A stretch of DNA of 32,000 nt from Sinorhizobium meliloti (lineage in GTDB: Bacteria; Pseudomonadota; Alphaproteobacteria; Rhizobiales; Rhizobiaceae): contig NZ_JAGIOS010000003.1 in NCBI RefSeq assembly GCF_017876815.1, forward strand, positions 1,320,001 to 1,352,000, written 5' to 3'. Position 1 is the stretch's first letter. Every line of letters starts with the position of its first letter. Of this stretch, positions 2,322 through 22,279 are shown piece after piece. Under the pieces are notes generated by a model. It had not been told where the DNA came from, did not search any database, and saw only the letters and a program-made list of their open reading frames with translations. A program made the position numbers and the translations under genes.

Positions 2322-2555
2322 ATGGGTTCCATTGATGATTTTCGCAGCAAGCTGGCTACCGACAGCGCCTTTGCAGCGGCAGTGAAGGCCTGCTCCACCC
2401 CGGATGCGATCGTGAATGCTGCCAAGGACGCCGGTATCGACCTCAGCCACAATGATCTGGCCAAGGCGATCGCGGCGGGAAGCCCGAATCTGACGGATGA
2501 AGATCTGGAGTCGGTATCCTCCGGCACCATCATGGCCGCAGCGCTGGTCAAGTAA
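2322..2555 (+). CDS. RiPP precursor peptide, Nif11-like leader, copy 1 (77 aa)
   Basis: MGSIDDFRSKLATDSAFAAAVKACSTPDAIVNAAKDAGIDLSHNDLAKAIAAGSPNLTDEDLESVSSG/TIMAAALVK. It matches the Nif11-type leader pattern (M..eqLkaF..kv..D..l...lka..tpe.vv..Ak.aGf.l...dl......LsdEeLE.VaGG). GGAG lies 8 nt upstream of the ATG. An alternative ATG 24 nt upstream (MPTDGESL..) follows GAGGA. Confidence 0.85.
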   Translation: MGSIDDFRSKLATDSAFAAAVKACSTPDAIVNAAKDAGIDLSHNDLAKAIAAGSPNLTDEDLESVSSGTIMAAALVK

Positions 2556-2570
2556 TCAGTGTGACGGTTC

Positions 2571-2602
2571 GGCCAGGTGCGTGCGCCAAGCCGCACCTGG
2601 CC
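2571..2602 (+). promoter_or_regulatory. Stem-loop 15 nt after the precursor stop (11-bp perfect stem, 10-nt loop), copy 1
   Basis: ggccaggtgcg-tgcgccaagc-cgcacctggcc. No U-tract follows, so an attenuator or mRNA-stabilising/processing hairpin is more likely than a strong intrinsic terminator. Confidence 0.5.
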
Positions 2603-2864
2603 TCTCCAGATGAACACGCTTGCTCTAATATCTTGGAGCCCGAGCCCTCCTGCTCCTGAACGAGCTTGTCGGCACTTCAAGCGCATGTCGAGAACATGAT
2701 TTTGACGAAGCCGTTCAGCGGTCCCCGACCTGCTCGGCGTGATCGAAGCGCCTAAGTGGTATCCCTTAGTGGTTCACCCGAATTTCTTTAAGTCCGCAAA
2801 AGTGGCACTTTGCGCTCACATCAGATCCGCCGAGGATTTGATGCCAACTGATGGAGAAAGTCTA

Positions 2865-3098
2865 ATGGGTTCCATTGATGATTTTCGCAGCAAGCTGGCT
2901 ACCGACAGCGCCTTTGCAGCGGCGGTGAAAGCCTGCTCCACCCCGGATGCGATCGTGAATGCTGCCAAGGACGCCGGTATCGACCTCAGCCACAACGATC
3001 TGGCCAAGGCGATCGCGGCAGGAAGCCCGAATCTGACGGATGAAGATCTGGAGTCGGTATCCTCCGGCACCATCATGGCCGCAGCGCTGGTCAAGTAA
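2865..3098 (+). CDS. RiPP precursor peptide, Nif11-like leader, copy 2 (77 aa, identical peptide)
   Basis: Same peptide as copy 1. It differs from copy 1 at four third-codon positions only (gca/gcg, aag/aaa, aat/aac, gcg/gca). Confidence 0.85.
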   Translation: MGSIDDFRSKLATDSAFAAAVKACSTPDAIVNAAKDAGIDLSHNDLAKAIAAGSPNLTDEDLESVSSGTIMAAALVK

Positions 3099-3113
3099 TC
3101 AGTGTGACGGTTC

Positions 3114-3145
3114 GGCCAGGTGCGTGCGCCAAGCCGCACCTGGCC
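3114..3145 (+). promoter_or_regulatory. Post-precursor stem-loop, copy 2
   Basis: Identical hairpin sequence to 2571..2602. Confidence 0.5.
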
Positions 3146-3406
3146 TCTCCAGATGAACACGCTTGCTCTAATATCTTGGAGCCCGAGCCCTCCTGCTCGT
3201 GAACGAGCTTGTCGGCACTTCAAGCGCATGTCGAGAACATGATTTTGACGAAGCCGTTCAGTGGTCCCGACCTGCTCGGCGTGATCGAAGCGCCTAAGTG
3301 GTATCCCTTAGTGGTTCACCCGAATTTCTTTAAGTCCGCAAAAATGGCACTTTGCGCTCACATCAGATCCGCCGAGGATTTGATGCCAACTGATGGAGAA
3401 AGTCTA

Positions 3407-3640
3407 ATGGGTTCCATTGATGATTTTCGCAGCAAGCTGGCTACCGACAGCGCCTTTGCAGCGGCGGTGAAAGCCTGCTCCACCCCGGATGCGATCGTGA
3501 ATGCTGCCAAGGACGCCGGTATCGACCTCAGCCACAACGATCTGGCCAAGGCGATCGCGGCAGGAAGCCCGAATCTGACGGATGAAGATCTGGAGTCGGT
3601 ATCCTCCGGCACCATCATGGCCGCAGCGCTGGTCAAGTAA
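3407..3640 (+). CDS. RiPP precursor peptide, Nif11-like leader, copy 3 (77 aa, identical peptide)
   Basis: Coding sequence identical to copy 2, with the same GGAG Shine-Dalgarno. Confidence 0.85.
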   Translation: MGSIDDFRSKLATDSAFAAAVKACSTPDAIVNAAKDAGIDLSHNDLAKAIAAGSPNLTDEDLESVSSGTIMAAALVK

Positions 3641-3655
3641 TCAGTGTGACGGTTC

Positions 3656-3687
3656 GGCCAGGTGCGTGCGCCAAGCCGCACCTGGCC
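3656..3687 (+). promoter_or_regulatory. Post-precursor stem-loop, copy 3, 24 nt before the first YcaO gene
   Basis: Identical hairpin sequence. It lies between the last precursor and the enzyme genes. Confidence 0.5.
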
Positions 3688-3710
3688 TCTCCAGATGAAG
3701 GGGCACCGAC

Positions 3711-4901
3711 GTGACCACTCCCGCCATCGGCACTAGAAATCGCAGGCAAGAATCAAGAATAATGACAGCATGTAACAGTTTGGGAACTTCGATTCGCAAT
3801 GTATCCGCAAGTCATACGCTTGCCGCGATCCAGCCACTTCTCGGACGTTACGACATCAGCGGATTTGCCGATCATTCGCCAAAGGGTGCAGAAACTCTGA
3901 AGTTTATAGAGGTCGTGCGCGGCAATCCGCGTTCGGGACATCTTAATCTCGGGAAAGGCTTTAGCTTCGAGACGGCACTTGCCTCGGGATACATGGAAGC
4001 CATCGAGATGAGTACGGTTGAAGGTCCGCCCGAGATCGCGTTGCATGCGCTTCCTCGATCCGCGCTTCTTTATACCGGGGGCGGAAAGCCGCCGGAGCCG
4101 GATGCGGCGCCCATGATCCGTGGCGTTGACCTGTTGTCGGCAGAGCCGGTTTACAGCCCTGTCTATGAACATTTCCTGTCGCCTGCCCCCTCGGCGCGGT
4201 CTGTTTCCGTCAACGGCTTGGCCAGCGGAAACACGGTCGAGGAAGCCAGTTTACATTGTCTCTATGAACTGATCGAACGCGACTTGACTGCCCAATCCCT
4301 CCGCGACCCGGTGCTGGTGCAGCAGCTTCTCCTCAGCGACATTCCAGCGCCCATTTCCAACGCCCTGACGGAACTGGAAGCGTTCGGACTACACGCCGAA
4401 TTCTATCTTCTGGGGCAGTTCCTCGGCGTCACTGTGCTTCAATGTGCGCTTGTAAAAACCGGATCCGGTGGCGAGGTCTATTATGGCTGGGGCGCTCATC
4501 ACTTCCGAGCCATTGCCATTTCTCGTGCCATGACAGAAGCCGTGCAGGCCTGGTGTACGCGCGAGGCATGCAGAGCGCAGACGCTTCCTCTTTCGCGCAT
4601 GCCTGGCGGGGTCATGGTCTCTGCCGAGGTTCTGAAGCTTTTGAGGGAACCTGTTACGAAGGGCGAACGTCAGTTGCGGCGGCGCTTCATCGCCTGCCCG
4701 AGCGTTGCCTATTCGCTCACCGATCAGGATGAGCAGGCACCGGCATCGCCAACGGCTGCCCTGAACCACCTTCTCTCGTCGGCGCGGGACGCCGGCATCC
4801 GTCATGTCTTTGCCTGGACGCTATCCCCGCCAGACCGTCCATTTGCCGTCGTCAAATGTGCCGTCCCCGGATTCGAAACTCCATTTGAGGTGGACGCGTG
4901 A
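3711..4901 (+). CDS. ycaO: YcaO-domain protein 1 (396 aa)
   Basis: YcaO signatures GKGFSFETALASGYMEAIEMSTVE and NGLASGNTVEEASLHCLYELIERD. GTG start is preceded by GAAGGGG (alternative ATG at 3762). Its stop overlaps the TfuA start. Confidence 0.85.
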   Translation: MTTPAIGTRNRRQESRIMTACNSLGTSIRNVSASHTLAAIQPLLGRYDISGFADHSPKGAETLKFIEVVRGNPRSGHLNLGKGFSFETALASGYMEAIEMSTVEGPPEIALHALPRSALLYTGGGKPPEPDAAPMIRGVDLLSAEPVYSPVYEHFLSPAPSARSVSVNGLASGNTVEEASLHCLYELIERDLTAQSLRDPVLVQQLLLSDIPAPISNALTELEAFGLHAEFYLLGQFLGVTVLQCALVKTGSGGEVYYGWGAHHFRAIAISRAMTEAVQAWCTREACRAQTLPLSRMPGGVMVSAEVLKLLREPVTKGERQLRRRFIACPSVAYSLTDQDEQAPASPTAALNHLLSSARDAGIRHVFAWTLSPPDRPFAVVKCAVPGFETPFEVDA

Positions 4902-6271
4902 TGGTTGTCGAGACCAACAATGAGATTGCCGTTTTTCTGGGCCCGTCCTGCTCGATTGAAGAAGCTAAAAGCATCCTGCCGGAGGCAGATTACTTTCCGC
5001 CCGCGGCTCGTGGCTCCATCTACGGTATTATCAATGATGGATACCGGATGATCGTCCTTCTCGACGGTCTGTTCTACGGACAATATTCTGTTTGGCATAA
5101 GGAACTCCTGTTCGCCCTGGATTGCGGCATTGAAGTAATCGGCGCAACGAGCATGGGTGCCCTGCGGGCGGCCGAACTGGACTGCGAGGGCGTGACCGGT
5201 GTCGGGCAGATCTACCAGTGGTTTCGTGACGGCGAAATCGATGGCGATGACGAAGTGGCTCTGCTCCACCAGAGTTCCGAGGGAGCTTACGCGCCTCTTT
5301 CCATCCCTCTCGCCAATTTGCGTTGGAATCTGCGCCTTGCCCGAAGAGAATGTATGATCGACGAGCAGCAGGAAGCGCGGATTCTGGACCATGCAAAGGC
5401 CCTGTGTTTCCAGGACCGAATGATGGAGGTCGTGCTTTCGCCGCTGGCAAAGGAACTGGATGTTTCTGGCTTGCAAAAATGGCTTGAAACGCATGGAGAG
5501 GATCTAAAAAAAAGGGATTGCTTAGAAGCGTTGCACTTTGCCGCCAGCCGGATCGCGACCCTTGGCCCCGCGCAGCCTCCCCGTCTTCGCGCCTATGAGA
5601 CGGTGCATACGCTGATCGGCATCGAGTATTTCAAGCACGAGCGGTTGAATGCCATCTGCGCAAAACGGCAAGGCAAGGCCATGCCGCTCTCGCAGTACAC
5701 CGAGCGAGTTGCCGTGGGAGATCCCTCCTATCGTAGCTATCTGCGCGCTCGCGCTTGCCAGCGCCTTATCAATGGCTGGGCTCGGGAACTTCACCTCGAA
5801 ATCACCCCGGCGCCCATTCTGCCCCAATGGTTACCCAATCGGTTTGACCTCGCTCACCGCAGGGCAACCGGCCTGACGCTAATCGACATTGCACGTGAGG
5901 GACGGGAAGCCGCCTTCACCGCAGGCGTCATCGGATCTCTCTCATCACCCGGCAGCCGCAGCCTCGTCTCCGATATTGACCGGCAACTGGCAGAGGCAGG
6001 TTTCTCGGCATGGGGCGCGGGAGCCGAAATCACACATTTGGATGGCCGCCTTGTTTATACGCTTCGTCGCCTGGGGCGCGAAAAGGGCATTTTGCCGGAC
6101 GAGAATGAAGATGCAGATACCGCCGAAGCGGCGCTCCACTACCTTGAATGGGTCTATCGCACCGGCTTGCAGCACTTCGGCTACACATTTGACGCGGCAA
6201 CCGAAATCCTCCTGGCACACCAATTTGCCGATCGACTTGACGACATTCTCGGATTGAGGGCTGCATCATGA
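4898..6271 (+). CDS. tfuA: TfuA-like protein with about 240-aa C-terminal extension (457 aa)
   Basis: The N-terminal 200 aa carry the TfuA pattern: IAVFLGPSCS..A..ILP.A.YFPPAARGSIY..., LLDGLFYGQYSVWHKELLFALDCGIEVIGATSMGALRAAEL, GVGQIYQWFRDGEIDGDDEVAL. GTG 4898 / ATG 4901 overlap the YcaO1 stop (4899-4901). ATGA overlap with YcaO2 at 6268-6271. Confidence 0.85.
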   Translation: MMVVETNNEIAVFLGPSCSIEEAKSILPEADYFPPAARGSIYGIINDGYRMIVLLDGLFYGQYSVWHKELLFALDCGIEVIGATSMGALRAAELDCEGVTGVGQIYQWFRDGEIDGDDEVALLHQSSEGAYAPLSIPLANLRWNLRLARRECMIDEQQEARILDHAKALCFQDRMMEVVLSPLAKELDVSGLQKWLETHGEDLKKRDCLEALHFAASRIATLGPAQPPRLRAYETVHTLIGIEYFKHERLNAICAKRQGKAMPLSQYTERVAVGDPSYRSYLRARACQRLINGWARELHLEITPAPILPQWLPNRFDLAHRRATGLTLIDIAREGREAAFTAGVIGSLSSPGSRSLVSDIDRQLAEAGFSAWGAGAEITHLDGRLVYTLRRLGREKGILPDENEDADTAEAALHYLEWVYRTGLQHFGYTFDAATEILLAHQFADRLDDILGLRAAS

Positions 6272-7485
6272 ATGCTGTTGAGGAATACTCACAAGGAACC
6301 CAGCGCACCTATAATCCGGAAGAGACATTGCGGAGAATTGCGCCAGCGATGCGCACCTGCGGCATCAGCCGCGTTCTCGACGTCACCCATCTCGATCGAA
6401 TCGGCATCCCCACCTACAATGCCGTGCGCCCCAATGGAATGATCTTGTCCGTGTCCAATGGGAAAGGGTGGACGAAGGCCGCCGCATCCGTATCCGCAAT
6501 CATGGAGTCGATCGAGGTCGAGCACGCCGAATATCCGGATACCTCGGCCTGGCATCTGGCTCAAAGCGCGAAGGTACTGCGAAACCGGGGATATTCGGTC
6601 GTCGATGCGCCAACGCTCATCAGCGAGTGCCTCTGGCCCTCCGATACCTATGGCGGTCTCTACTACTCAGATGATCTTCGCCTCGATTGGGTCGAGGGAC
6701 GCGAGATCATCGAGTCTCGGCCAGTCCTGCTGCCGGCCAGCACCATCTATGTACGCGCGCCTTACGTGCATTATTTCACCAGCAATGGATTGGCGAGCGG
6801 CAACACCTGGGAAGAAGCAACGCTTCACGGCATCTGCGAGTTGATCGAACGCGATTCCACGGCGCGTCTCCTCGGTCGTCCCGAGGGCATGACCACATCA
6901 CGGTTGCTTCGGATCGAGCCAAAATCGATGCCTGAACATCTCGGGCACTTCTCGGAGAAAGTGGCGCAGGCCGGAATAGAGCTTTTCATGTTCGCTCTTC
7001 CGAGTGCCATCGATATCCATACATTCTGGGCTGTGTTCCATTGCCCGGGCGAGCCCAGTTTCATGCTGGCCACCTCGGCGGGCTTCGGGTGCCATACATC
7101 GCCGCAGATCGCCGCGTCTCGCGCCCTGACCGAAGCTGCCCAGTCGCGCCTGACCTATATTCACGGGGCGCGGGAGGATCTGGGGATAGACCACGTCAAT
7201 CGTCAACTGACCTGCGCGGAGACAGAAGCGCGATTGGCCTTGCAGGCGCGGACATTTGCCAAGTTTCGGCAGATCCCGACCGTCACCTGGGATGAACTTC
7301 TGGCCGTGGCGCCACATCGTGCCCGCGGGCGTACGATCCCGGAAAGCCTCTCCATGGTGCTGAGAATGTTGAAGGAGGCCGGACACGGTCAGGTCTATGT
7401 CCACGATCTGACGAAGCGCGGTCTAGACCTGGCCGTGACGAAGGCCTTCGTGCCGGGGCTCAAGGTCAGCGCGAAGATGATTTGA
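6268..7485 (+). CDS. ycaO: YcaO-domain protein 2 (405 aa)
   Basis: Canonical YcaO N-terminus (GISRVLDVTHLDRIGIPTYNAVRPNG..SVSNGKGWTKAAASVSAIMESIEVEHAE) and NGLASGNTWEEATLHGICELIERD. No Pro-rich azoline-type C-terminal tail. Confidence 0.9.
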   Translation: MNAVEEYSQGTQRTYNPEETLRRIAPAMRTCGISRVLDVTHLDRIGIPTYNAVRPNGMILSVSNGKGWTKAAASVSAIMESIEVEHAEYPDTSAWHLAQSAKVLRNRGYSVVDAPTLISECLWPSDTYGGLYYSDDLRLDWVEGREIIESRPVLLPASTIYVRAPYVHYFTSNGLASGNTWEEATLHGICELIERDSTARLLGRPEGMTTSRLLRIEPKSMPEHLGHFSEKVAQAGIELFMFALPSAIDIHTFWAVFHCPGEPSFMLATSAGFGCHTSPQIAASRALTEAAQSRLTYIHGAREDLGIDHVNRQLTCAETEARLALQARTFAKFRQIPTVTWDELLAVAPHRARGRTIPESLSMVLRMLKEAGHGQVYVHDLTKRGLDLAVTKAFVPGLKVSAKMI

Positions 7486-7529
7486 CTCTAGTGAAATGAC
7501 GATAATCGCGCGCCGCAACAGGCTGCGCA

Positions 7530-8507
7530 ATGGAGACGACCCGCATGACCCTGGAGACAGCATCGCCCGTGCAACCGAATAGCCATCCCGGCACGCCCTT
7601 TGGTGAGATGTGGCGCGTAGCGGAACAGAACCCAGCTTATTCCCTTCTGGAAGTGCTCGATTCCATTGATCGAGACGTGTGGGACATGGAAATGCCGAGC
7701 GCCGATCAACGCGGCGTCTACGCCCGGGTGAACGGTCAGGCGGCTCTGCACCGGTTGCGGGAGGCGATGAACGGCATGGAGGCGGAGTATCCGCTCGATG
7801 CCCCGCCGCGACGCCGCCAATGGCTCGCCTCGGGTTGCTTCATGCGTGTCGAGGCGGTGCTTGATGCCTCACAGGTCCGTGAACTGGCGGGGCACTGCGA
7901 CCATCTGCTGCATACGCCCGGAATGCGCCCTGTCCGCCTGTTTGAAAACCCGCATATTCTCTCGGAAGAAGCCATAGTCGCCATAGCCCGAACTGCGCTT
8001 GCGGCTCTCCCACAGGCTTTGCCGTGCTCGGCGAGACCTGCTCTTCTGAAGAGACGAACGCTCTTGCGCCGGACTTTCCCACGGGCACAGCTTCCCGATG
8101 CGCACGGCAACGCCAATAATCAGTTTTGGCATCAGGACAGCAATCAGAAGTTCAACGATGCACCCATGATCACGCTTTGGATTCCGCTGGAGGATGGCGT
8201 TGGAAGAACCTGCCCCGGTATGGAAGTTATCGATGCGCCGGTTTCCTACTTCTCCATTTTGCATGGGGATAGTTCCCAAACCATCTGCCCAATTCTGTGC
8301 GACATGTTTCCCGGCACCCAAATTACGTCGCTGGAAGCAGCTGCTGGAGATTGCGTCATGTTCAACGGCCTTACATTCCACCAGACCGCGACAAATCCTG
8401 AGATGCGGCAGCATCGGGATGCGCTTTTGATCCGCATCATCGAGGCGGCAGATGCGGCCCATTTTGGTCCTGATGGGGCAGCTGATGGGATCGTTCCACT
8501 TGTCTAG
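7530..8507 (+). CDS. PhyH-family Fe(II)/2-oxoglutarate dioxygenase-like protein (325 aa)
   Basis: FWHQDS (HxD facial-triad motif typical of phytanoyl-CoA dioxygenase relatives) and distal LTFHQTA. An alternative ATG at 7545 has GGAG 9 nt upstream. Confidence 0.65.
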   Translation: METTRMTLETASPVQPNSHPGTPFGEMWRVAEQNPAYSLLEVLDSIDRDVWDMEMPSADQRGVYARVNGQAALHRLREAMNGMEAEYPLDAPPRRRQWLASGCFMRVEAVLDASQVRELAGHCDHLLHTPGMRPVRLFENPHILSEEAIVAIARTALAALPQALPCSARPALLKRRTLLRRTFPRAQLPDAHGNANNQFWHQDSNQKFNDAPMITLWIPLEDGVGRTCPGMEVIDAPVSYFSILHGDSSQTICPILCDMFPGTQITSLEAAAGDCVMFNGLTFHQTATNPEMRQHRDALLIRIIEAADAAHFGPDGAADGIVPLV

Positions 8508-9363
8508 CCTCGCCGTCCGCATCATAGGCGCCGGTGCAGTGGGAATGGCGTGCGGCTACCTGCTGCAACGGCGCGGGCATAAGCCACTGCATGTCAGTAT
8601 GCGTGGAGCGCCCTTGCGTGAACTGCCAGTTGCCATGCAAGGCACGGCACGCGGTCGATACCGCCCCGAAGCTGCGACACATGCTTCCCCGACGGATATA
8701 ACGCTCTTTGCTGTCGGGCCGCACGAAGTGGCCGGTGCATTGGCAACATGGGGTCAACCTGATGGGCGAAACCTTGTGTTCTGCGCTCATCCAGAACCGC
8801 AAGAAGGCGCCGTCATGGTCTTTCCGCAGATTTCGGCAGAGATTTGCCCAATGCGCGGACTTGGCATTGTGACGAGCGGCGCTGTGGAGATCTGCAACAA
8901 GTCGCAGCCTCATGCCCCTGGCCTTCTGCTGAAATTGGGCTTCAGGCTGGTACGCATGGTGACGCGGGCTCATTTTGCAGGTCGCGCCCTGCAAACGGCG
9001 GCATCTTATGTTGTGCTTCTCGCCCTCTCCCGTGGTGAGATGACCCGCGATCAGGTCTCACAGGTCTTGCTGATCGACATCATGCGGTTGCTGATGGAGG
9101 CCATGAGAGGGGCCGAAATTGCGGTCCAACTGCCGGATGGCTGTTCCCGCGCCTTCGCTGAACTGGCTTTACACATCTGCGCGCCCACTTCCGCCGAAAA
9201 TGATGTTCTCTCGCAAAACCTGGAAGCGCTGATGGCAACACCACAGCGCAAATTGCGCGGCCACCTTGCCCTCTACGAAGCGCCATGGCGGCGGCATGGT
9301 CCGGCCTCCGACGGGCTTGCGGCACGCCTGATCGATTTCGCGACATCTAAGCCCGTCCTCTAA
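8485..9363 (+). CDS. NAD(P)-binding Rossmann-fold oxidoreductase, possibly ketopantoate-reductase-like (about 292 aa)
   Basis: N-terminal VRIIGAGAVGMACGYLLQRRGH (GxGxxG) right after the start. The ORF opens at 8452 and overlaps the dioxygenase stop. ATGs at 8473/8485 or TTG near 8499 are possible starts. Family assignment beyond the dinucleotide fold is weak. Confidence 0.55.
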   Translation: MGSFHLSSLAVRIIGAGAVGMACGYLLQRRGHKPLHVSMRGAPLRELPVAMQGTARGRYRPEAATHASPTDITLFAVGPHEVAGALATWGQPDGRNLVFCAHPEPQEGAVMVFPQISAEICPMRGLGIVTSGAVEICNKSQPHAPGLLLKLGFRLVRMVTRAHFAGRALQTAASYVVLLALSRGEMTRDQVSQVLLIDIMRLLMEAMRGAEIAVQLPDGCSRAFAELALHICAPTSAENDVLSQNLEALMATPQRKLRGHLALYEAPWRRHGPASDGLAARLIDFATSKPVL

Positions 9364-9400
9364 TGAACTGTCCTCGCCCATGCGCAAGAAAGGAAATTCC

Positions 9401-9679
9401 ATGCAACAACTGACAGTGATCGTCCCACCCTCGATCCGGCCCTATGTCGGGGGTCAATCGCGCATCACAGTTGAGGCCCAAACCGTGCGCGAGGCGCTGG
9501 GCGCCATGTCCGCCAAATCCGCGCAATTGAAGGAGCATTTGTTCGACACGAAAGGCGAGATCAATCGCTTTGTTCGGATTTTTGTCAACGGACGGCCCGT
9601 GCCGCTCGGATCGCGCGGCGATGAAGCCGTCGAAAACGGCGCGGAGATAGCGGTCGTGTTGGCGCTGGCTGGAGGTTGA
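9401..9679 (+). CDS. ThiS/MoaD-family ubiquitin-like sulfur carrier protein (92 aa, C-terminal Gly-Gly)
   Basis: MQQLTVIVPPSIRPYVGG...VNGRPV....EAVENGAEIAVVLALAGG-stop. Size, beta-grasp-like pattern and terminal GG fit the family. AAGGAA lies 6 nt upstream of ATG 9401. Confidence 0.8.
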   Translation: MQQLTVIVPPSIRPYVGGQSRITVEAQTVREALGAMSAKSAQLKEHLFDTKGEINRFVRIFVNGRPVPLGSRGDEAVENGAEIAVVLALAGG

Positions 9680-9683
9680 GGGC

Positions 9684-10826
9684 ATGCTCAGGCAGGAACG
9701 TCTATCACGTCTACGGGAATCCTTGTCTCGGATCAGTGTCGAGGAGGCAAGACGGAAGCAAAAGGCTGGCGTCAAACTGATCGATATTCGTGACGCCGAA
9801 GAAACCGCCAAAGGCAGCCCTGTCGGCGCGGTACGCATCAGCCGATCCTTTCTGGAATTGCAGATTGAAAACGTGGCGCCGGATGCCGATACCGAGCTTA
9901 TGGTACTCTGCGCCAGCGATGCGCGCGCGCTGTTTGCCGCAGACGATCTCAACCGCCTCGGCTATTCTTCCGTTCATTGGGTCGATGGCGGATTTCAAGC
10001 CTGGGAGGCAGCCGGTCTTCCCGTTGAAAAACACCGACAGCTGAGCGCAGCGGAGAAGGAGCGATACGCGCGCCATTTGAGCATACCCGAAGTGGGGGCT
10101 GAGGGTCAGGCGCTGCTTCTGTCCAAGAAGGTGGCTCTGGTCGGTGCTGGAGGCCTTGGCTCTCCGCTGGCCTTTTATCTTGCGGCAGCAGGCATTGGAA
10201 CATTGGGGCTGATTGACAGCGACCGGCTCGAACGGTCGAATCTTCAGCGGCAAATCCTCCATACCGACGACCGGATCGGGGAGTTGAAGGTCAGTTCGGC
10301 CGCAAAATCTCTTCAGGCGTTCAATCCGGACGTAGCTCTCAATCTCCATGAGATACGGTTGAACGAGAACAATGCACTGGAAATACTGGCCGATTACGAT
10401 CTGGTGATCGACGGCAGCGACAATCTGGCGACCCGCTACGTCGTGAGCGACGCCAGCACGCTGCTTAATATTCCCATGATTTATGGCGCGATCTTCCGTT
10501 TCGAGGGACACGTTTCCGCATTTTGGCCCAATGGCCCGTCCGGTGGCCCGTGCTATCGCTGTCTCTTTCCTGAAAAGCTGCCCGCATCGCTCACTCCATC
10601 CTGCTCCGAGGTCGGTGTGCTTGGCGTGTTACCGGGCGTCATCGGGACGATCATGGCAACGGAAGCGATCAAGATCCTGCTCGGAATCGGCGATCCGCTG
10701 ATTGGGCGTTTGCTGACCTACAATGCCCTCGATTGCTCTTTCCACGACCTCGAGGTCCCCGCGAACCCCCATTGCGAGCAGTGCCAATCCAACCGGGATC
10801 TGCCACGCATGCGCGCCGGGTTGTGA
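9684..10826 (+). CDS. Rhodanese-ThiF/MoeB fusion (E1-like adenylyltransferase/sulfurtransferase, 380 aa)
   Basis: Residues about 1-115 form a rhodanese domain with an active-site loop Cys (MVLCASDARALFAADDLNRLGYSSVHWVDGGFQAWEAAG). The rest is canonical MoeB/ThiF: RYARHLSIPEVGAEGQ, VGAGGLGSPLAFYLAAAGIG, DSDRLERSNLQRQILH, DGSDNLATRY, CYRC...CEQC zinc motifs. GGAGG lies 9 nt upstream. Confidence 0.9.
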   Translation: MLRQERLSRLRESLSRISVEEARRKQKAGVKLIDIRDAEETAKGSPVGAVRISRSFLELQIENVAPDADTELMVLCASDARALFAADDLNRLGYSSVHWVDGGFQAWEAAGLPVEKHRQLSAAEKERYARHLSIPEVGAEGQALLLSKKVALVGAGGLGSPLAFYLAAAGIGTLGLIDSDRLERSNLQRQILHTDDRIGELKVSSAAKSLQAFNPDVALNLHEIRLNENNALEILADYDLVIDGSDNLATRYVVSDASTLLNIPMIYGAIFRFEGHVSAFWPNGPSGGPCYRCLFPEKLPASLTPSCSEVGVLGVLPGVIGTIMATEAIKILLGIGDPLIGRLLTYNALDCSFHDLEVPANPHCEQCQSNRDLPRMRAGL

Positions 10827-10846
10827 GCGTGGGCGGCCCTCTTACG

Positions 10847-11467
10847 ATGCTGCAAGCCTTCCGGTTTGGTGAAAGCGACCGGGACCATGTGTCCCGATTG
10901 CTGCATTGGGCGGACTTTCCCAACAGTGCACGTATTGTGGACCTCGGCGCTGGCAGCGGCGGGGTCGCGGCCCATATGGCGGCTTTGCGTCCGGATTTAC
11001 GTTTCTGTCTGGTCGATCTGGATGAAACGAAACTGGCGGCCAGTTCATTCGAAAAACACATTGCAAATATAACGCAAGTCCCAGAACCCGATGGTGCATT
11101 CGACGCGGCGATTTGCTGTTACGCAATGGGTTATGCGCCTTCGGATGCGCTATGGTCGGAGATTTCACGCCTTCTGCGACCGGGTGGCACTGTTTTTATC
11201 GTGGATATGGTGCCCAAGGATGCCACGATCCCGAAGCTTAGCCTGTTCGGCTATGAGATACGGAGCCGTGGGATGGTCGAGGAAGCGGCGCAATCTGTTG
11301 GTTTGATACCGGATGTCTATATCGAGCCGTATGATTCCGGCGATTGGGGCCGGTCCGTCTTTTCGGATGCTTTCGATGTATTCTTCGGCGATCTGCGGCC
11401 CGCCATCTGGTGCTGGCGCGCGCCCGAAACCAAGACCGTCGCTCACCCCTCGACCACCCAAGCGTGA
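10847..11467 (+). CDS. Class I SAM-dependent methyltransferase (about 206 aa)
   Basis: Motif I IVDLGAGSGGVAAHMA, post-I LVDLDE, motif II FDAAICCYAMGY, motif III LLRPGGTVFIVD. An alternative GTG at 10823 forms a GTGA overlap with the E1 stop. Confidence 0.8.
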   Translation: MLQAFRFGESDRDHVSRLLHWADFPNSARIVDLGAGSGGVAAHMAALRPDLRFCLVDLDETKLAASSFEKHIANITQVPEPDGAFDAAICCYAMGYAPSDALWSEISRLLRPGGTVFIVDMVPKDATIPKLSLFGYEIRSRGMVEEAAQSVGLIPDVYIEPYDSGDWGRSVFSDAFDVFFGDLRPAIWCWRAPETKTVAHPSTTQA

Positions 11468-11532
11468 TCGATCGACGGCATCCTAAGGTTACTGCGGCAG
11501 GGGCATAGCAGAGCGCGCATTCTGTCTGAGCG

Positions 11533-12066
11533 TTATACCAGGGCGATATTCGCCCACAGGTTCATCGCCTCGGCGAGAATTTCGCGATGATGGCTTGAGG
11601 AGCACGCCGGCACGCCGCAAGACAACATTTCCCGGTGCAGCCGTCGCTCAGTTCGAAAGCAATGACGGGGTGCCTGACCGACTGTGCCGACGTTCCCAAC
11701 TCGCCGCCGCAGCGAGGATTTGGCGCTCGCGCCACGTCTGGAACGAGGGACGACCATCGCCATTTCGCCCTCGTCGCGCACCATGTTCCGATAGTCCATT
11801 AACTCTTGCTCACACTCAAGCCACATTGCCACCACCGGCCCGGCCACGCTGTACTCTCCGGCTCTTGGCAGTACTTGACGTAGTTCTCGTGCCAAAGCGG
11901 CAGTATATCCACCGGGTCGACATCGACACCGTAGCGCTCGGCAATGGTACGGGAGTTGTCGACGTTCTCCAAAAGCGTGGCCAGGAACGCCTTGCACCGA
12001 GCCGGCGCTCCGTGAAGCGCTTGACATGCGACAGCGTGCGAAGCTGTCCAGACTTGCGTCGATCAA
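11533..12066 (-). pseudogene. Decayed gene of unknown family (protein-like stretches spread over three reverse frames)
   Basis: Reverse frames give YRNIFDRRKSGQLRTLSHVKRFTE, then FLATLLENVDNSRTIAERYGVDVDPVDILPLWHENYVKYCQE, then WLECEQELMDYRNMVRDEGE ... HHREILAEAMNLWANIALV-stop. No single frame is intact or recognisable. Confidence 0.3.
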
Positions 12067-12128
12067 AGATGTTTCGGTAGCATTCGGTAGCCGCGCTGGT
12101 ACATAACCGGGCCTCTTACTTGCAGGTT

Positions 12129-12317
12129 TCAGATTATGGGGGTGGATGTGCGTTTAAGGGTCACAGTGCCGGCCACGACTAGAACGACTTCGATGGCGAC
12201 AGTCGCAATTACGGTGGTGCCGTTCGATTGATTTTGGCCGGAGATCTCCCCTTCAACAAATGCGTCCGAGCGTGCTGTGCAATTGTTGGCGTCATCGATC
12301 GTGAAAATGGTAGCCAC
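12129..12317 (-). CDS. Candidate small ORF (62 aa) downstream of the LanM-like gene
   Basis: GTG start 2-3 nt after AGGAAG. Product MATIFTIDDANNCTARSDAFVEGEISGQNQSNGTTVIATVAIEVVLVVAGTVTLKRTSTPII. Moderate GC3 bias. An AT-rich stretch lies upstream. Not recognisable, and may be a gene fragment. Confidence 0.25.
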   Translation of the reverse strand: MATIFTIDDANNCTARSDAFVEGEISGQNQSNGTTVIATVAIEVVLVVAGTVTLKRTSTPII

Positions 12318-12468
12318 GCTTCCTGACGCTCGCCACCAGCGTTGCGAGGCCCCATAGTATTTGATTTAACATGTTCGACGAGGACAAAAGCAAAAACGAT
12401 CATATCAAAACAAATTTTCAAAACACAGCCTTTCGGCGTTTGACAAAAAAGCTTGTACTTCTGACCGT

Positions 12469-15390
12469 TCAATGGCCTATGGTCGGAAGAAGACCAGCAG
12501 AGATGATAAGGTCGCGAGCCGCGTTGGACCGCTCGTCCCGGATCTGTGCGAACCCTATACCAGCAACGCCAGTGAACAGACCGAGATGGCGTGGATCGCA
12601 GTACTTCTGGGTGTCTGAAGAGCATGGCAAATTGCCAGTTGCCTGTGCTGATGACGCGCAGGCCATCTCGACGCCGGCGGTGCCGCTGTGGATACCGGCT
12701 CCTTGGTTAGGCAGGGACGCCAATCCGATCACCCCGCGCCGGATTGCAGCATCCGCATTCGCTCGCCATTCTTGGTCATGACGCAGGCACAGGCATGTGA
12801 TGATGTGACCTGCAATGCCGCAACTCCATTCAGAACCGGCGCGAGGGCCGAAGCGCCAGAAGGCTTCCGAGCTGTGTTGAAGCAGGGATTGAACCGAAGC
12901 GCGAATGTTTGCGTTCCCTGATACATGCGCAAACTGACTGAGCGCAGCCAATACACCAAAAGCACCTTGCGCAAAGCCAGACGGTGCCGTTTCCGCCTCT
13001 CTGCTGGTCCAGTCGGCCAGACGGCAGGCAACCATCTCGGCCTGAGTGTCCGCTGTGTCGGAATTCACGAGTAGGAGCGGACCCAGCAAGCCCGCATATC
13101 CGGACCAGACATCCCAAGGCTTATCTTCGAGCAAGGCCCGATCGAGAACTGCAACCAACTGCTGCATGGCGTGCGGGATTCGATCGGCCATTATGCTAAG
13201 CCTCTGCAGTGCCGACAATGCCAGAAGCTGTCCGCCGCTGCCACGCAACCCGATGGGCAGGTCTCGCCACCACCGCAGGCGCTCAGCCGGTGTTCCGCTC
13301 TCCGCCAGCCTCAGAAGCGGCTCAGCCAAATTTTCTGCAATATGGCAGGCCTCTGGTCTTCCGGTCGCTGCAAGATAGACGGCAAGACCAAGTGTGCCGC
13401 TCACGAGCGACATTCCAAGCGGCTGGTAGCAGAACCGGATACCATCCGGCGCGAGATCGAATCCGATCCAGCCATCTGATCGACGCCTGATTTCCGATAA
13501 AAGCTGGTCTGTCGGATTGGTGATCGGTTGGAGGCTGTTCTCGCAACTCCGCCCGTGCTGCGCGAGCCGCAATGCCTTGGCCGATGCCAAAGCGTCTATT
13601 GTTTCGATCTCACGCTCGATCCTTTCGCAGGACAATGCCTCTATTCGCTCCCGGCTTGCCGCCAAGCCACTCGTCTCGAAATAGTCATCGATTCGTTGAT
13701 CGCCGGTCAGGTTCAGGGCCGTTTGCGAGACCGTGTGCGTGAATACGGGAATATCCAGTTGGCGCATTTGCAGCTTTTCAGAGGCGCATAGGCTTGAAAC
13801 GTCCTGACGATCTGCAAGCGGCGCAAAAAGGCGCTCCAGCGGATAAAGAACGTCTGCTTGGGACTGCTCGCTTCGCAATGCTTCCGCCGTCAACTGACGG
13901 CGTGCAAGCGCCGCATAGATCCGTGTCGCGCGAATGACAGCGCGCCCCTTGCAGCCGTTGAAGGCCTGCAACAGGCCATCTTCCCCCAGCCAAACGGGTT
14001 TGTTGGCGATGATGGACCTGCACTGCGCATGGAATCCGGCCATGAAGAGCTTACGATGACGGAAAAATGGATTCTTCCTGTCTGACGTTACGGGCAATGA
14101 TTGCGTGCGAACGAGCTCCCCGATCATGACGGTGCGGGCCATGTTATCCGTATTGATGGAGTGCCAGCCGGGAATTTGCCTTGGCCATTCCTGAGGCTCG
14201 ATGCCGAAAGCGCTCGTATCGACGGCATCGCGTGCGAGGCCCAGTAAGGTCCAGGCTGGAAATAGCTCGGTTCGTGCAACGGTGGTGTCGAACCAAGACC
14301 ATGCCGTCTGGGCCGCACCCAGGCTGTCCCCCGGCCGTGGACGGCGAATTGCTGGCTTCTCGAAGGGCGTCAAAAGCGTTTCGGCGTCTATAACATATAG
14401 ATGGCTGTGATGCGCCACGAGGTTTTCGTGGTGACCATCCGTGTAACCTAAAACATGCAGGAGAGCGGCCAGTCTGCCGGCACTGCGATAGAATGCCTGC
14501 AGTACATCTTCGTTGTCGCAGGGCGCGCCCTCAACAAATTCCATATAGCCATAGTCTTCTGCGCACCAGATTTTCAGCCCGGGAAGAGGTGAAAGACCGA
14601 TGCTAGCGCGCGGATCCGCCAGCAAATTCTGGAACGCCGCCTCGAGGGCGAGGTTACGGGGCTTGTAGACGAGTTTTGTCTGCCGCCCCTGCCAAGTGAA
14701 TTCCAGCAGCACGACGCTCCGTCCACCCTTATGGGTATCGCCGACAGCAAATTGCATGCCGGAAAGCGCCGCGTCTTCAGGAAGGCGGAAGTTTTGAGCG
14801 ATTGCTGTCCGATCCGCCTCGAGGCGGGCTAAAAGCTCGCGAAGATTTCTGATCCAGACTGCAATTGTGAAAGGAATCAAGCGTCGAAGGACCGGAAAGC
14901 GATCCAGCAGTTCCGCCAGATGTGTCTGCCGCAGTTCGTCTGTCAAGCGATCATAGATCTCGCATTTCGCGGCGCTCGGGTCTTTCTCCGGGGCTAATGC
15001 GGCGATGACGGACGCGCCAGCGCCACGCCGCTCTTCAAGTATTTGCTGAAGTGCATCTGCCCCCAACGCGCAAAGGCGCTCTGTCAGCGCTACAATCAGT
15101 TGCCCGATGACGGTTGGCGCCAACGCGGCTTGCGGCAGAAGCCCCATTGCGACTTCGGCCAGAGGAAACCACAGGTGAACAAAAGGCAGCTCTTTCGCAA
15201 GGCAAGGCGTTCGCGAAATGTCTTGCCTCGCCGCGAAGCATAAACCCGAGAGAAACGCATCTCCGGAACCGGCTTTCTCACGAGGCGCGCCTGTATTGCC
15301 CACCGGATCGGCAAGCTCGTCCACCAATGGCCAAAGGGCTACTATCGCCGTATTGTCTCGTGCCTCTTTTCGGATGTTTGCGTCGATCAT
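12469..15390 (-). CDS. lanM: LanM-like class II lanthipeptide synthetase (973 aa) with degenerate LanC-type cyclase motifs
   Basis: Dehydratase (DUF4135-type) signatures GDTHKGGRSVVLLEFTWQGRQTKLVYKPRNL and YGYMEFV...FYRSAGRLAALLHVLGYTDGHHENLVAHHSHLYVIDAETLL. The C-terminal repeats are LanC-like, but GFAQGAFG replaces G-x-A-H-G, EWSCGIAG replaces W-C-x-G, and GIHSGTAG (12673-12696) replaces C-H-G. Start moved to ATG 15390 (GGGAGG 9 nt upstream) rather than the track's 15441. Confidence 0.85.
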   Translation of the reverse strand: MIDANIRKEARDNTAIVALWPLVDELADPVGNTGAPREKAGSGDAFLSGLCFAARQDISRTPCLAKELPFVHLWFPLAEVAMGLLPQAALAPTVIGQLIVALTERLCALGADALQQILEERRGAGASVIAALAPEKDPSAAKCEIYDRLTDELRQTHLAELLDRFPVLRRLIPFTIAVWIRNLRELLARLEADRTAIAQNFRLPEDAALSGMQFAVGDTHKGGRSVVLLEFTWQGRQTKLVYKPRNLALEAAFQNLLADPRASIGLSPLPGLKIWCAEDYGYMEFVEGAPCDNEDVLQAFYRSAGRLAALLHVLGYTDGHHENLVAHHSHLYVIDAETLLTPFEKPAIRRPRPGDSLGAAQTAWSWFDTTVARTELFPAWTLLGLARDAVDTSAFGIEPQEWPRQIPGWHSINTDNMARTVMIGELVRTQSLPVTSDRKNPFFRHRKLFMAGFHAQCRSIIANKPVWLGEDGLLQAFNGCKGRAVIRATRIYAALARRQLTAEALRSEQSQADVLYPLERLFAPLADRQDVSSLCASEKLQMRQLDIPVFTHTVSQTALNLTGDQRIDDYFETSGLAASRERIEALSCERIEREIETIDALASAKALRLAQHGRSCENSLQPITNPTDQLLSEIRRRSDGWIGFDLAPDGIRFCYQPLGMSLVSGTLGLAVYLAATGRPEACHIAENLAEPLLRLAESGTPAERLRWWRDLPIGLRGSGGQLLALSALQRLSIMADRIPHAMQQLVAVLDRALLEDKPWDVWSGYAGLLGPLLLVNSDTADTQAEMVACRLADWTSREAETAPSGFAQGAFGVLAALSQFAHVSGNANIRASVQSLLQHSSEAFWRFGPRAGSEWSCGIAGHIITCLCLRHDQEWRANADAAIRRGVIGLASLPNQGAGIHSGTAGVEMACASSAQATGNLPCSSDTQKYCDPRHLGLFTGVAGIGFAQIRDERSNAARDLIISAGLLPTIGH

Positions 15391-15455
15391 GGCGATGCCT
15401 CCCGCACAAATCTCCCTTTCGACCCGGCAACATTTCCGCATTGACAGCTATGGAT

Positions 15456-15473
15456 ATTGCAACATGGTGCAAT
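15456..15473. promoter_or_regulatory. Palindrome ATTGCA-N6-TGCAAT in the divergent lanM-like/protease intergenic region
   Basis: Perfect 6-bp arms, 10 bp downstream of a TTGACA hexamer (15441-15446). Candidate operator, but short enough to occur by chance. Confidence 0.2.
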
Positions 15474-15494
15474 CTGAGGAATGTGGAGACATAT

Positions 15495-16682
15495 ATGCAG
15501 CCTACAATGCCGTCCTATAACTTTCTGCCGGAGGATTTCAAGGTCTATGTCGGCGCGGATGGAGGTGTGTCTTACATGCCCGGCCCGCAGCGGCAGGAGC
15601 GCACTTTGCCGACGATCAATCGTTACGGGGGGCCTGACGGTGGCTATGTCGCGGTCTGTTCGCGTGTGGCGGATCATGCTGTCTATTCCGTTGGCGACGG
15701 GATCTATGTGGTTGGCCAGATCAGGCTGCAAGGCGCCTATGAGGGGCGCTTTTTCGTGCCGAAGGGCTATGGAAGAAAGGGCATCAGCGCTGCTCCGGAC
15801 ATGAAGGCGATATGCGATCAAGCCTTTCCCGGTAGCGCACCAAACTGGGCGAGCGGCGATGCCGGCGGTTGGTTTGGTCTGCTGATCGATAAGCGGGACG
15901 TTCGCGATAAGATCCTCACGTTGGATTTGCCCCAGCAATTGCCGGAAAAGGTTGATTTGCGACGATGGTGCTCGCAGGTCCAAAATCAGGGCACCTTGAA
16001 CGCCTGCACCGCCTACGCCGCCTCGGCCATCCTGGAATATTTCGAAAATCGCGCCGGCGGAAACGCAGTGTCGCTGTCGGAAATTTTCCTTTACAAGGTC
16101 ACGCGCAACCTGATGCACAAGACGGGCGACACGGGAGCCAATACGCGATCCGTCATGAAGGCTTTGGCAGCCTTAGGCACGGTGCCGGAAGAATATTGGC
16201 CGGATGACGCATCCCAATTCGATGCTGAACCGTCTGCCTTTGCCTATGCGCTGGCAGGTCGTTATCGCTCTCTCAAGTACAGCAGGATTGATGCGAAGGA
16301 CCGTTCAAAGGACGTGGTGTTGCGCCAGGCCAAGACATTGCTCAGTCGGAACCGTCCGGTCATGTTTGGCGTCATGGCGTATTTCGGCACCTGGCAGCAA
16401 TTCGTGACGTCCGATCGCCTGCCTTACCCGAGTGAGGATGACACGCTTTTTGGCGCCCATAACATTGCCGTCATGGGCTATGACGATGGCATCACAACGG
16501 AAAATGCCAAGAACCCCGGCATCAAGACGAGGGGCGCCTTCCTCATTAAAAACTCCTATGGCGAGGAGTGGGGTGACAAGGGCTACGGCTGGATTCCTTA
16601 CGATTACCTACTGAAACATCAGTCGATTGACTGGTGGACGATCACCAAGCAGGAATGGCTCGACATGAGCGTGTTCAGCTAA
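15495..16682 (+). CDS. Papain-family (C1) cysteine peptidase with about 130-aa N-terminal domain of unknown function (395 aa)
   Basis: Catalytic motifs VQNQGTLNACTAYAAS (Gln/Cys), GAHNIAVMGYDD (His), FLIKNSYGEEWGDKGYGWIPY (Asn). No signal peptide is apparent. GGAG lies 6 nt upstream of ATG 15495. The track's upstream extension (15114) overlaps the lanM-like gene. Confidence 0.85.
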   Translation: MQPTMPSYNFLPEDFKVYVGADGGVSYMPGPQRQERTLPTINRYGGPDGGYVAVCSRVADHAVYSVGDGIYVVGQIRLQGAYEGRFFVPKGYGRKGISAAPDMKAICDQAFPGSAPNWASGDAGGWFGLLIDKRDVRDKILTLDLPQQLPEKVDLRRWCSQVQNQGTLNACTAYAASAILEYFENRAGGNAVSLSEIFLYKVTRNLMHKTGDTGANTRSVMKALAALGTVPEEYWPDDASQFDAEPSAFAYALAGRYRSLKYSRIDAKDRSKDVVLRQAKTLLSRNRPVMFGVMAYFGTWQQFVTSDRLPYPSEDDTLFGAHNIAVMGYDDGITTENAKNPGIKTRGAFLIKNSYGEEWGDKGYGWIPYDYLLKHQSIDWWTITKQEWLDMSVFS

Positions 16683-19502: not shown

Positions 19503-20534
19503 GGACGCTCTCCCTTGTAATGGTTCCAACACAACCATTCTGGTACGAAGATGCCGTAGAGTGGGAGCGTCCACCCCATCGCTCACGTTGAATCAGCAGT
19601 CGCTGTCTTTGGTAGAAAAAGGCCATGTATCGACTGGAATGCTCGCCGTTGCTGCGGCCGACGACGCGCCGGGTATGGTGCCTACGACTCTCAGGGTAGG
19701 GATGACGCTGCAGGGGCCGTACTGAACGCGCGCTGGGCGCACTTCAACAATCATGCAGCCAACCAGTTTGGGCGGTCCCCGACCGTTGCACTTCATCCTC
19801 GTCGACTGCGCACCAGTCGCAAATCCGACATATGTCGATGCCGACCTCCGCGCCACGATGAAGCACGATCAGTTTATGTGCTTTGCGATACATGTATGAG
19901 GCGACATACGCGCGACTCTGTCCTTCATCATCAACGATTTCGAAGATATACCTCAAACAAATCACCCGCAGTAATTGTACAATCTGAGGAGTATTCGCCA
20001 ACGCTTGGGGGAGGCTTGTACCCTTCCGCCCAAAGGAGCGCTTTCCATTCTGCCGGATACGGGCTCCTTAGCGACGAGTAACACGCGGCTTGCGCCTCGA
20101 TGGCTTATTAGCGTCTTGACCGCGCGAGACCTCCCTTGGAATTTGGAAAAGATATCGCGTTCGGCATAACCCCCCTCGCAACTCGAAGCTGAAGTCTAGG
20201 AGATTCCCGCTTCAGAGTTTCGGTTGTGACCCCTGCCTTCATATTGATGATCCTTCCCTTCCCTGGACCTCGCGCCATCGCCCCTGTCCTGGATACAAGC
20301 CTCAAAGTTCCGGCAACCGCACGGGGCAGACGAAGATCCGGCTGTGGTGCCGCTCCCCACGGCCCTGCGGCTTGGAAGGTGACAATCCGACAGCCGGCCG
20401 CCGGGCGGGATGACGGCCGGCCCCGAGACGATCCTCATGCAGAGATTCACATCCAAGAAGGTGGCCAGCAGACCGGATGATCAGCGTCGGATCGACCTGT
20501 CTCAACGAGATCGCTCGCGTCTCTTTGTTGCGTA

Positions 20535-20562
20535 CAAAAAAGGGCGGCCCGAGAGCCGCCCT
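20535..20562 (-). terminator. Rho-independent terminator of groESL
   Basis: On the reverse strand: agggcggc-tctcgg-gccgccct followed by TTTTTT, 38 nt after the groEL stop. Confidence 0.85.
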
Positions 20563-20599
20563 TCGGATCCGGATGGATCGTGCTAAGGCTGTCGCCTTA

Positions 20600-22279
<1,680 letters not shown>

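Follow-up and report, generated by a model that had tools for sequence, protein, structure and literature searches.

A Gly-Gly-ending sulfur carrier and its N-terminal-rhodanese E1 as a probable dedicated sulfur relay in a YcaO-TfuA thioamidation cluster of Sinorhizobium meliloti

We analyzed a 32,000-nucleotide stretch of Sinorhizobium meliloti DNA (the window; contig NZ_JAGIOS010000003.1, positions 1,320,001 to 1,352,000), which harbors a cluster for a thioamide-type peptide that is made on ribosomes and then modified post-translationally (RiPP), and focused on two adjacent genes encoding a small sulfur-carrier protein of the ThiS/MoaD/CysO type (9401..9679, + strand) and an E1 enzyme in which a rhodanese domain is fused to a MoeB/ThiF adenylyltransferase (9684..10826, + strand). 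The two proteins probably form a dedicated relay that brings sulfur to the cluster's YcaO-TfuA thioamidation machinery, a reading that we base on the synteny of the pair with YcaO-TfuA and on the separate clade formed by its E1. An original prediction made from the sequence had described a 92-residue carrier ending in Gly-Gly, followed 4 nt later by the rhodanese-MoeB/ThiF E1, and this was confirmed by the open reading frames (ORFs), the Pfam matches and the structure matches. The predicted embedding of the pair in a thioamide RiPP operon was likewise borne out: the same strand carries Nif11-type precursor genes, a YcaO, TfuA, another YcaO, two further genes and, after the pair, a methyltransferase, with a LanM gene on the opposite strand.

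The carrier ORF comprises 92 codons and closes with ...LALAGG-TGA (stop codon at 9677–9679), and its ATG at 9401 is preceded by AAGAAAGGAA. Another in-frame ATG at 9380 would yield a 99-residue product; the homologues are 90–92 residues long and begin at the Met that aligns with the ATG at 9401. The protein matches Pfam ThiS (3.8e-8), and its closest solved structure is CysO of M. tuberculosis (3dwg_C, E = 1.4e-9, residues 4–92), with the ThiS/MoaD-family protein 4n6e_B matching as well (3e-7), so that homology predicts a small beta-grasp fold and identifies the carrier as a ThiS/MoaD/CysO homologue. The terminal GG is invariant across 13 aligned carriers. All 23 TfuA-linked carriers end exactly in GG-stop, as opposed to 3 of 22 cysteine-pathway carriers, the remaining 19 of which possess additional C-terminal residues or are fused to an E1; the GG-stop ends of the TfuA-linked carriers fit with TfuA clusters that have no JAB protease. 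In the Rhizobium relatives (L001-L003, 8768–9997, equivalent to 8452–9679 of the window), the upstream Rossmann-like ORF has no stop and continues in frame through the carrier, giving a 409-aa ORF in which the carrier's ribosome-binding site and ATG are still present; this read-through may be a real fusion or merely an annotation effect.

The E1 gene starts at ATG 9684, separated from the carrier stop codon by the 4-nt gap GGGC, and encodes 380 residues, with the rhodanese domain at residues 20–109 (9741..10010; Pfam Rhodanese, 9.5e-12) and the ThiF/MoeB adenylation domain at residues 128–365 (10065..10778; Pfam ThiF, 8.3e-72). The latter aligns with E. coli MoeB (1jw9_B, E = 4e-52). Its ATP loop G154-A-G-G-L-G159, together with R130, R189, K202 and D243/D246, aligns with the E. 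coli enzyme and is invariant among the aligned relatives, as are the zinc-site CxxC pairs C290/C293 and C364/C367 and the crossover-loop C307, whose counterpart in MoeB is the Cys within TCVEAGV. Antisense ORFs at 9347–9952 and 9711–10511 (both − strand) overlap this region and were taken as high-GC artefacts, given the strong family matches and conserved synteny of the + strand ORFs.

The order of the two E1 domains had been considered unusual in the original prediction, and this proved wrong. The protein is a full-length member of a curated NCBIfam family of the same domain order, NF006444 (PRK08762, 'MoeB'; 557.7 bits, with the cutoff set at 449; residues 3–374 on positions 3–374 of the 387-position model), and an N-terminal rhodanese is found in 80 of 80 metagenomic relatives among the matches listed (42–53% identity), a set that serves as an outgroup and gives no full count of the TfuA-linked clade. 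In the best 120 database relatives, both domains are present throughout, with 89–100% coverage of the query. MoeZ carries its rhodanese domain at the C-terminus; the order of MoeZ, MoeBR and Uba4 is not that of the E1 described here, in which the rhodanese precedes the ThiF domain, and the MoeZ model NF005902 covers only the ThiF part (332 bits, with the cutoff at 647).

The thiocarboxylate's proposed consumer is a long-form TfuA of 457 aa (4898..6271, + strand; Pfam TfuA, 9e-40; 6xp8_A, E = 2e-38), and its partner is a YcaO of 405 aa (6268..7485, + strand; Pfam YcaO, 1.2e-65; thioamidation-YcaO family TIGR03266, 2.5e-63) whose start codon at 6268 overlaps the TfuA stop codon at 6271. With three Nif11-type precursor genes upstream, the locus thus has the composition of a YcaO-TfuA system. 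Nearly all TfuA-adjacent YcaOs in the survey described below match this YcaO far better than the divergent copy at 3711–4901. The AF2 model of TfuA has a predicted local distance difference test (pLDDT) score of 90, and its residues 1–220 superimpose on 6xp8 with a template modeling (TM) score of 0.90 at 34% identity; on this model, the N-terminal domain is a genuine structural homologue of solved TfuA. A Foldseek search returned no significant PDB match for the C-terminal half (approximately residues 220–457), which is largely helical and modeled with confidence. Long TfuAs (at least 435 aa) make up about half of the best 80 sampled loci, and those of methanogens are all short; the C-terminal extension may bind the precursor or the carrier.

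Neighborhoods were examined for twelve E1 relatives, ten of which are TfuA-linked (56–88% identity) and span at least four cluster types. Six of these clusters belong to the same family as that of S. meliloti and include the E1, namely those of Rhizobium (88%), a Logan metagenome (73%), a JGI contig (67%), Mycetohabitans (66%), a Pseudomonadota metagenome-assembled genome (MAG; 66%) and Allosphingosinicella (66%). Most of the six share the block TfuA-YcaO-PhyH-like-Rossmann-like-ThiS-E1-methyltransferase, shuffled in order in some, and all six have a second YcaO, the 77-aa Nif11 precursor and LanM. Azospirillum (57% E1 identity) has a minimal YcaO-TfuA-ThiS-E1 operon, two metagenomic contigs (60–61%) show the order ThiS-E1-YcaO-short TfuA, and in a further contig (58%) the ThiS-E1 pair lies beside a cluster of LanB-type dehydratase, YcaO and TfuA. 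Since members of the E1 clade thus occur in minimal operons that lack further tailoring genes and in a LanB-type cluster, YcaO-TfuA is the constant partner of the pair. In the last two of the twelve (56–57%), the E1 belongs to JAB-ThiS-E1-PALP(CysM) operons of the CysO-type cysteine pathway, one of which additionally contains genes for sulfite reductase and 3'-phosphoadenosine-5'-phosphosulfate (PAPS) reductase. The LanB-type locus (L175, 7721–17173) comprises ThiS-E1 next to Lant_dehydr_N/C, YcaO, a long TfuA, a luciferase-like oxidoreductase, DUF6445 and a cupin, and is bordered by integrases and an IS110 transposase.

When the ThiF domains of 221 sequences were compared by neighbor joining with 100 bootstraps, the window E1 grouped in a clade of 34 members with a bootstrap value of 90; a 55-member clade that includes the Azospirillum group receives 79. 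For clade members whose context is known, TfuA linkage was seen in 14 of 14 cases in the tree run (15 once the neighborhood of P0019 had been looked up as well), and none belonged to the cysteine pathway. The outgroup E1s (42–57% identity, among the matches listed) are found either in JAB-CysO-E1-CysM operons or as stand-alone genes; of the 80 listed metagenomic relatives, 25 have JAB or CysM nearby and none is TfuA-linked. Because the best PDB match of the carrier is CysO and the outgroup E1s lie in such operons, we assign the pair to the CysO/cysteine-pathway lineage and not to thiamin or molybdenum cofactor (Moco) biosynthesis. Clustering with ordinary Moco or thiamin genes, the outcome named beforehand as speaking against a dedicated function, is not what we found, given the separate TfuA-linked E1 clade and the conserved synteny.

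The frequency of ThiS/ThiF pairs beside ycaO-tfuA, a question raised by the original prediction, was addressed with a TfuA profile scan of one genome per species, from which the best 80 loci were kept. A ThiF-family E1 is present at 22 of these 80 loci, less than 2 kb away from YcaO-TfuA in 19 of the 22, and at 14 of the 49 loci having at least 5 kb of flank on each side. A small GG-ending ORF adjoins the E1 in 17 of the 22. Judged by record titles, the E1-bearing loci divide equally between archaea and bacteria. Their E1s show three architectures: an N-terminal rhodanese in the Sinorhizobium cluster and Azospirillum, a C-terminal rhodanese in a gammaproteobacterial and a Francisellaceae MAG (L071 and L077), and no rhodanese in methanogens (243–257 aa) or in Chlamydiota and Verrucomicrobia (345–362 aa), which suggests that sulfur-carrier pairs have been recruited to YcaO-TfuA more than once.

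Domain content, motifs, operon arrangement, conserved synteny and the separate clade are observed; the chemistry that follows is a proposal drawn from homology to MoeB, MoeZ and Uba4 and, for the TfuA and YcaO steps, from published methanogen biochemistry. The ThiF domain of the E1 would bind the carrier and adenylate its C-terminal Gly92 with ATP, while Cys76 of the rhodanese domain would acquire its persulfide from a cellular source that the cluster does not encode, for example a cysteine desulfurase or thiosulfate. The Cys76 persulfide would then attack the acyl-adenylate of the carrier, and reduction of the resulting acyl-disulfide, possibly via the conserved Cys307, would release carrier-Gly-Gly-COSH. 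TfuA would hydrolyze this thiocarboxylate and pass a sulfide equivalent to the partner YcaO, which would use ATP to activate an amide in the backbone of the Nif11-type precursor, converting it to a thioamide. In two articles, TfuA systems are described as using a thiocarboxylated ThiS homologue that is hydrolyzed by TfuA (PMC13063428; PMC9576775).

Several observations weigh against such a dedicated relay or qualify it. The ratio of nonsynonymous to synonymous substitution rates (dN/dS) of the carrier is 0.47 relative to Rhizobium and 0.13 relative to the more distant relative L004; that of the E1 relative to Rhizobium is 0.39, a value shared by its rhodanese and ThiF domains, and the rhodanese domain falls to 0.18 against a more distant relative. 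Both genes resemble their neighbors in this respect and are under similar purifying selection, which speaks for the relay; counting against it, the values of 0.4–0.5 relative to Rhizobium point to constraint that is not strong. Furthermore, a Terriglobia MAG (L013, 7635–17646) contains a cluster of the same family, with a long TfuA, two YcaOs, PhyH-like and Rossmann-like proteins, a methyltransferase and a fragmented LanM, and has no ThiS or E1 within 10 kb of the cluster; members of the family can thus lack the pair, which makes it an accessory rather than an obligate module. The two remaining points concern the acceptor of the sulfur and the rhodanese active site, and each underlies an alternative explanation.

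With regard to the acceptor, the native chemistry of CysO is attack on an aminoacrylate, and a CysO-type carrier in a cluster with a LanM-made dehydro-amino acid may leave room for another acceptor. The carrier thiocarboxylate could undergo CysO/CysM-like addition to a dehydrobutyrine formed by LanM from an invariant Thr, or react with the Rossmann-like or PhyH-like proteins. The nearest solved relative of the carrier speaks for this, as do the in-frame continuation of the Rhizobium Rossmann-like ORF into the carrier and the precursor itself. After the Nif11 leader, the precursor C-terminus is nearly invariant, ...LESV(S/T)xG-T-x-M-A-A-A-L-x-K (the window, L002, L004 and L006-L008), and its putative 9-residue core T-x-M-A-A-A-L-x-K contains one Thr and no Cys, while LanM is kept by every cluster. 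A Cys-free core despite the presence of LanM points to a Cys-free product for which the carrier would be the sole source of added sulfur. However, the E1 clade also occurs in four-gene YcaO-TfuA-ThiS-E1 operons without dehydratase, Rossmann-like or PhyH-like genes, and TfuA, which has the fold of a known thiocarboxylate hydrolase, is always present, so that we regard a different acceptor as unlikely.

A more elaborate scheme would combine both chemistries on the Cys-free peptide, again with the carrier thiocarboxylate as the only sulfur source: the precursor's invariant Gly68-Thr69 would be thioamidated by YcaO/TfuA with carrier sulfur, Thr69 dehydrated by LanM, and the thioamide sulfur would add to the dehydrobutyrine to give a 5-methylthiazoline in which no cysteine takes part; the second YcaO or the remodeled LanC-like domain might close the ring. 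The sulfur-containing product would then be a ribosomal peptide of a new type. We consider this a long shot; if it were true, the ThiS-E1 pair would be the entry point of the ring sulfur, beyond boosting thioamidation.

With regard to the rhodanese, the original prediction of an intact active-site Cys holds for Cys76 itself (nt 9909–9911), and Arg81 is kept as well, but the surrounding loop, C76-A-S-D-A-R-A, departs from the C-x-x-G-x-R-S pattern seen in 204 of 204 tabulated N-rhodanese relatives, in which the third residue after the Cys is Gly and the sixth Ser. The loop reads CASDTRA in S. medicae (P0001) and CASGARS in Rhizobium. The Sinorhizobium changes Gly79Asp and Ser82Ala thus fall at positions that are uniform among the 204 relatives, and persulfide loading may be impaired or altered. 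Taken further, the pair could be retained in Sinorhizobium with its rhodanese half crippled, sulfur then getting to the adenylated carrier or to the YcaO in another way, for example via a trans-acting sulfurtransferase or as free sulfide. Retention of Cys76 and Arg81 and the equal dN/dS of the two domains argue against such a loss, and some active rhodaneses lack the Gly or Ser at these positions (bovine CRKGVTA, Azotobacter CQTHHRS); we find a crippled domain rather improbable.

It is very unlikely that an ordinary Moco, thiamin or cysteine-pathway pair came to lie beside the cluster by chance. RefSeq and NCBIfam do name the E1 'molybdopterin-synthase adenylyltransferase MoeB', and the outgroup E1 relatives are cysteine-pathway genes. 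Family searches, however, found no MoaE, ThiG or ThiH in the cluster, and no protein of the window matches JAB or CysM, both of which are present at loci L010 and L011. The two genes are translationally adjacent within a same-strand operon in an accessory region of conjugative megaplasmids, synteny with YcaO-TfuA is kept across Alpha- and Betaproteobacteria, and the E1 clade is separate. Chance placement is, on these grounds, already largely refuted, and we rejected a housekeeping insertion by synteny and tree.

We also rejected, on account of its intact motifs, the highly improbable reading of the E1 as a scaffold or partner of a YcaO instead of a carrier activator. E1-like YcaO partners are well known (PMC5589413, PMC6511847), and a second, divergent YcaO is present; like the Sinorhizobium E1, the E1-like and ocin-ThiF-like partners of azoline YcaOs are YcaO-adjacent members of the ThiF superfamily. 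Unlike those leader-binding scaffolds, which do not adenylate a carrier, the Sinorhizobium E1 has a carrier of its own and keeps all catalytic motifs, with invariance in the ATP loop, the catalytic Asp and Arg, the two CxxC pairs and the loop Cys; its only N-terminal domain is a rhodanese and not a peptide-recognition element, and it is always paired with a GG-ending carrier. Finally, we give next to no credence to a ubiquitin-like modifier (SAMP- or Urm1-like) conjugated to proteins by the E1, a reading favored by SAMP1 as the top NCBIfam match of the carrier (43.9 bits, under the cutoff of 60) and rejected on gene context, as an E2 and a JAB deconjugase are both absent, the E1 has a rhodanese domain, and the association with TfuA is strict.

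The dedicated sulfur relay that we favor resembles several known systems. In the methanogen system for McrA thioglycine, a GG-ending carrier and an adenylating E1 likewise lie beside YcaO-TfuA, and the Methanothrix order YcaO-TfuA-ThiS(92 aa)-ThiF follows the same logic as the Sinorhizobium cluster. The methanogen E1 is, however, a bare, rhodanese-free ThiF protein of 243–257 aa accompanied by a short TfuA (~215 aa), in contrast to the rhodanese E1 and long TfuA of Sinorhizobium; the archaeal E1s fall outside the well-supported 55-member clade and join at the next node, which has weak support (bootstrap 25), and the substrate is McrA instead of a Nif11-leader peptide. The name of NF006444 implies Moco synthesis, whereas the contexts that we found for its members are cysteine-pathway operons, stand-alone genes or, in the clade of the Sinorhizobium E1, YcaO-TfuA. 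The CysO/MoeZ/Mec+ (JAB)/CysM pathway of M. tuberculosis (3DWG) provides the nearest solved relative of the carrier and shares the lineage of the E1 outgroup, but the Sinorhizobium cluster lacks CysM and JAB, and its carrier ends in GG-stop where most cysteine-pathway carriers are extended or fused (19 of 22, as above).

Dedicated ThiS-like carriers with rhodanese-fused E1s are also encoded inside the biosynthetic clusters for thioquinolobactin (QbsE/QbsC) and pyridine-2,6-bis(thiocarboxylic acid) (PDTC; PdtH/PdtF) (PMC1779556). The QbsC and PdtF enzymes differ in having the rhodanese at the C-terminus and a JAB peptidase alongside, and their acceptor is an adenylated small-molecule carboxylate and not a YcaO-activated peptide amide. 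The occurrence of thiF, moaD and moeB near ycaO-tfuA, together with rhodanese domains there, was reported in 2017 (PMC5589413), and in a genome-mining survey from 2021, the legend to Fig. 4 names MoeB as one of the additional genes in TfuA clusters of four precursor types, one being Nif11-related (PMC8120280). The earlier proposal that a complete thiocarboxylate kit is encoded in the cluster for TfuA/YcaO is thus supported by synteny and the E1 clade as regards dedication, while the novelty it implied was overstated in view of the 2017 and 2021 publications. Both the arrangement and the E1 type are already known, and the Sinorhizobium pair is a well-supported ordinary case. What the present comparison of sequences adds is the assignment to a CysO-type lineage, the recognition of an N-rhodanese E1 clade dedicated to TfuA, the GG-stop signature shared by its carriers and the odd rhodanese loop of Sinorhizobium.

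According to a 2026 paper on E. coli uL16, the sulfur route to thioamide-forming YcaO enzymes in aerobic bacteria is only partly settled (PMC13063428). In the present cluster and its relatives, YcaO and TfuA together with the GG-ending carrier and its rhodanese-E1 make up a compact, self-contained four-part cassette from cultivable Proteobacteria. The cassette could be reconstituted in vitro or transferred into heterologous hosts for thioamide production with no sulfide added. As a modest refinement, the TfuA-dedicated N-rhodanese clade, with its CysO-like carriers, stands beside the separate archaeal (rhodanese-free) and C-terminal-rhodanese solutions; calling members of this TfuA-linked clade 'MoeB', as databases do, is misleading, and the accepted mechanism is unchanged.

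The three precursor genes encode Nif11-type peptides of 77 aa (2322..2555, 2865..3098 and 3407..3640, all + strand). They were recognized by translation (copy 1), by alignment (copy 2, identical to copy 3) and by the match of the third ORF to TIGR03798 (7.8e-19). The genes are identical and lie in a direct tandem repeat of ~542 bp, found by repeat search, as its period of more than 500 is beyond Tandem Repeats Finder. S. medicae plasmids match the repeat region in 2–3 pieces, so that the precursor copy number probably varies between strains. The precursors are followed by the second, divergent YcaO of 396 aa (3711..4901, + strand; Pfam YcaO, 4.4e-38), which is kept in the cluster family.

Between the partner YcaO and the carrier lie a PhyH-like protein of 325 aa (7530..8507, + strand; weak Pfam PhyH match, 4e-5; present in L001-L008, L013 and L173) and, directly upstream of the carrier, a Rossmann-like protein of 303 aa (8452..9363, + strand; weak NAD_binding_8/ApbA matches). 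The E1 is followed by an S-adenosylmethionine-dependent methyltransferase (10847..11467, + strand; Pfam Methyltransf_11, 3.6e-11) with a probable start at ATG 10847 and homologues of 197–216 aa. On the opposite strand, a LanM-type class II lanthipeptide synthetase of 990 aa (12469..15441, − strand; TIGR03897, 1.4e-135) has an altered cyclase metal site: in its LanC-like domain (the C-terminal ~330 residues), the metal ligands are lost or shifted in Sinorhizobium and Rhizobium (WSCG ... IHSG), and the LanMs of Mycetohabitans, a MAG and Allosphingosinicella retain WC[HR]G ... CCG, a pattern that we take to resemble that of ProcM. The Sinorhizobium/Rhizobium site appears to be decaying or repurposed. 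Divergent from LanM lies a papain-family (Peptidase_C1) ORF (15114..16682, + strand; Pfam, 2.6e-10), the true start of which is probably downstream of 15441; such an ORF adjoins LanM in L004 as well. As no peptidase-containing ATP-binding cassette transporter (PCAT) was seen, it is a candidate leader peptidase.

The segment 2700–11500 is 100% identical to a megaplasmid of S. meliloti RU11/001 and matches only 25 plasmid records (14 Sinorhizobium, 11 Rhizobium), all predicted to be conjugative; annotated records name the genes moeB, MoaD/ThiS family protein, TfuA-like protein and YcaO-like family protein. Scanning of 2400–12600 for promoters and terminators gave sites no more numerous than in shuffled sequence, so that no internal operon break can be called, and an Rfam scan of the whole window at the gathering threshold returned zero families. 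Further downstream, strong negative AT skew marks 21–23 kb, around an 814-aa ORF (20477–22921) with no Pfam match. At 28125–31254, cytochrome P450 ORFs, one of them apparently split, lie in a segment of 66% GC that comes after an IS4/5-family transposase ORF; the rest of the window has ~57% GC, and this region was probably acquired separately or disrupted.

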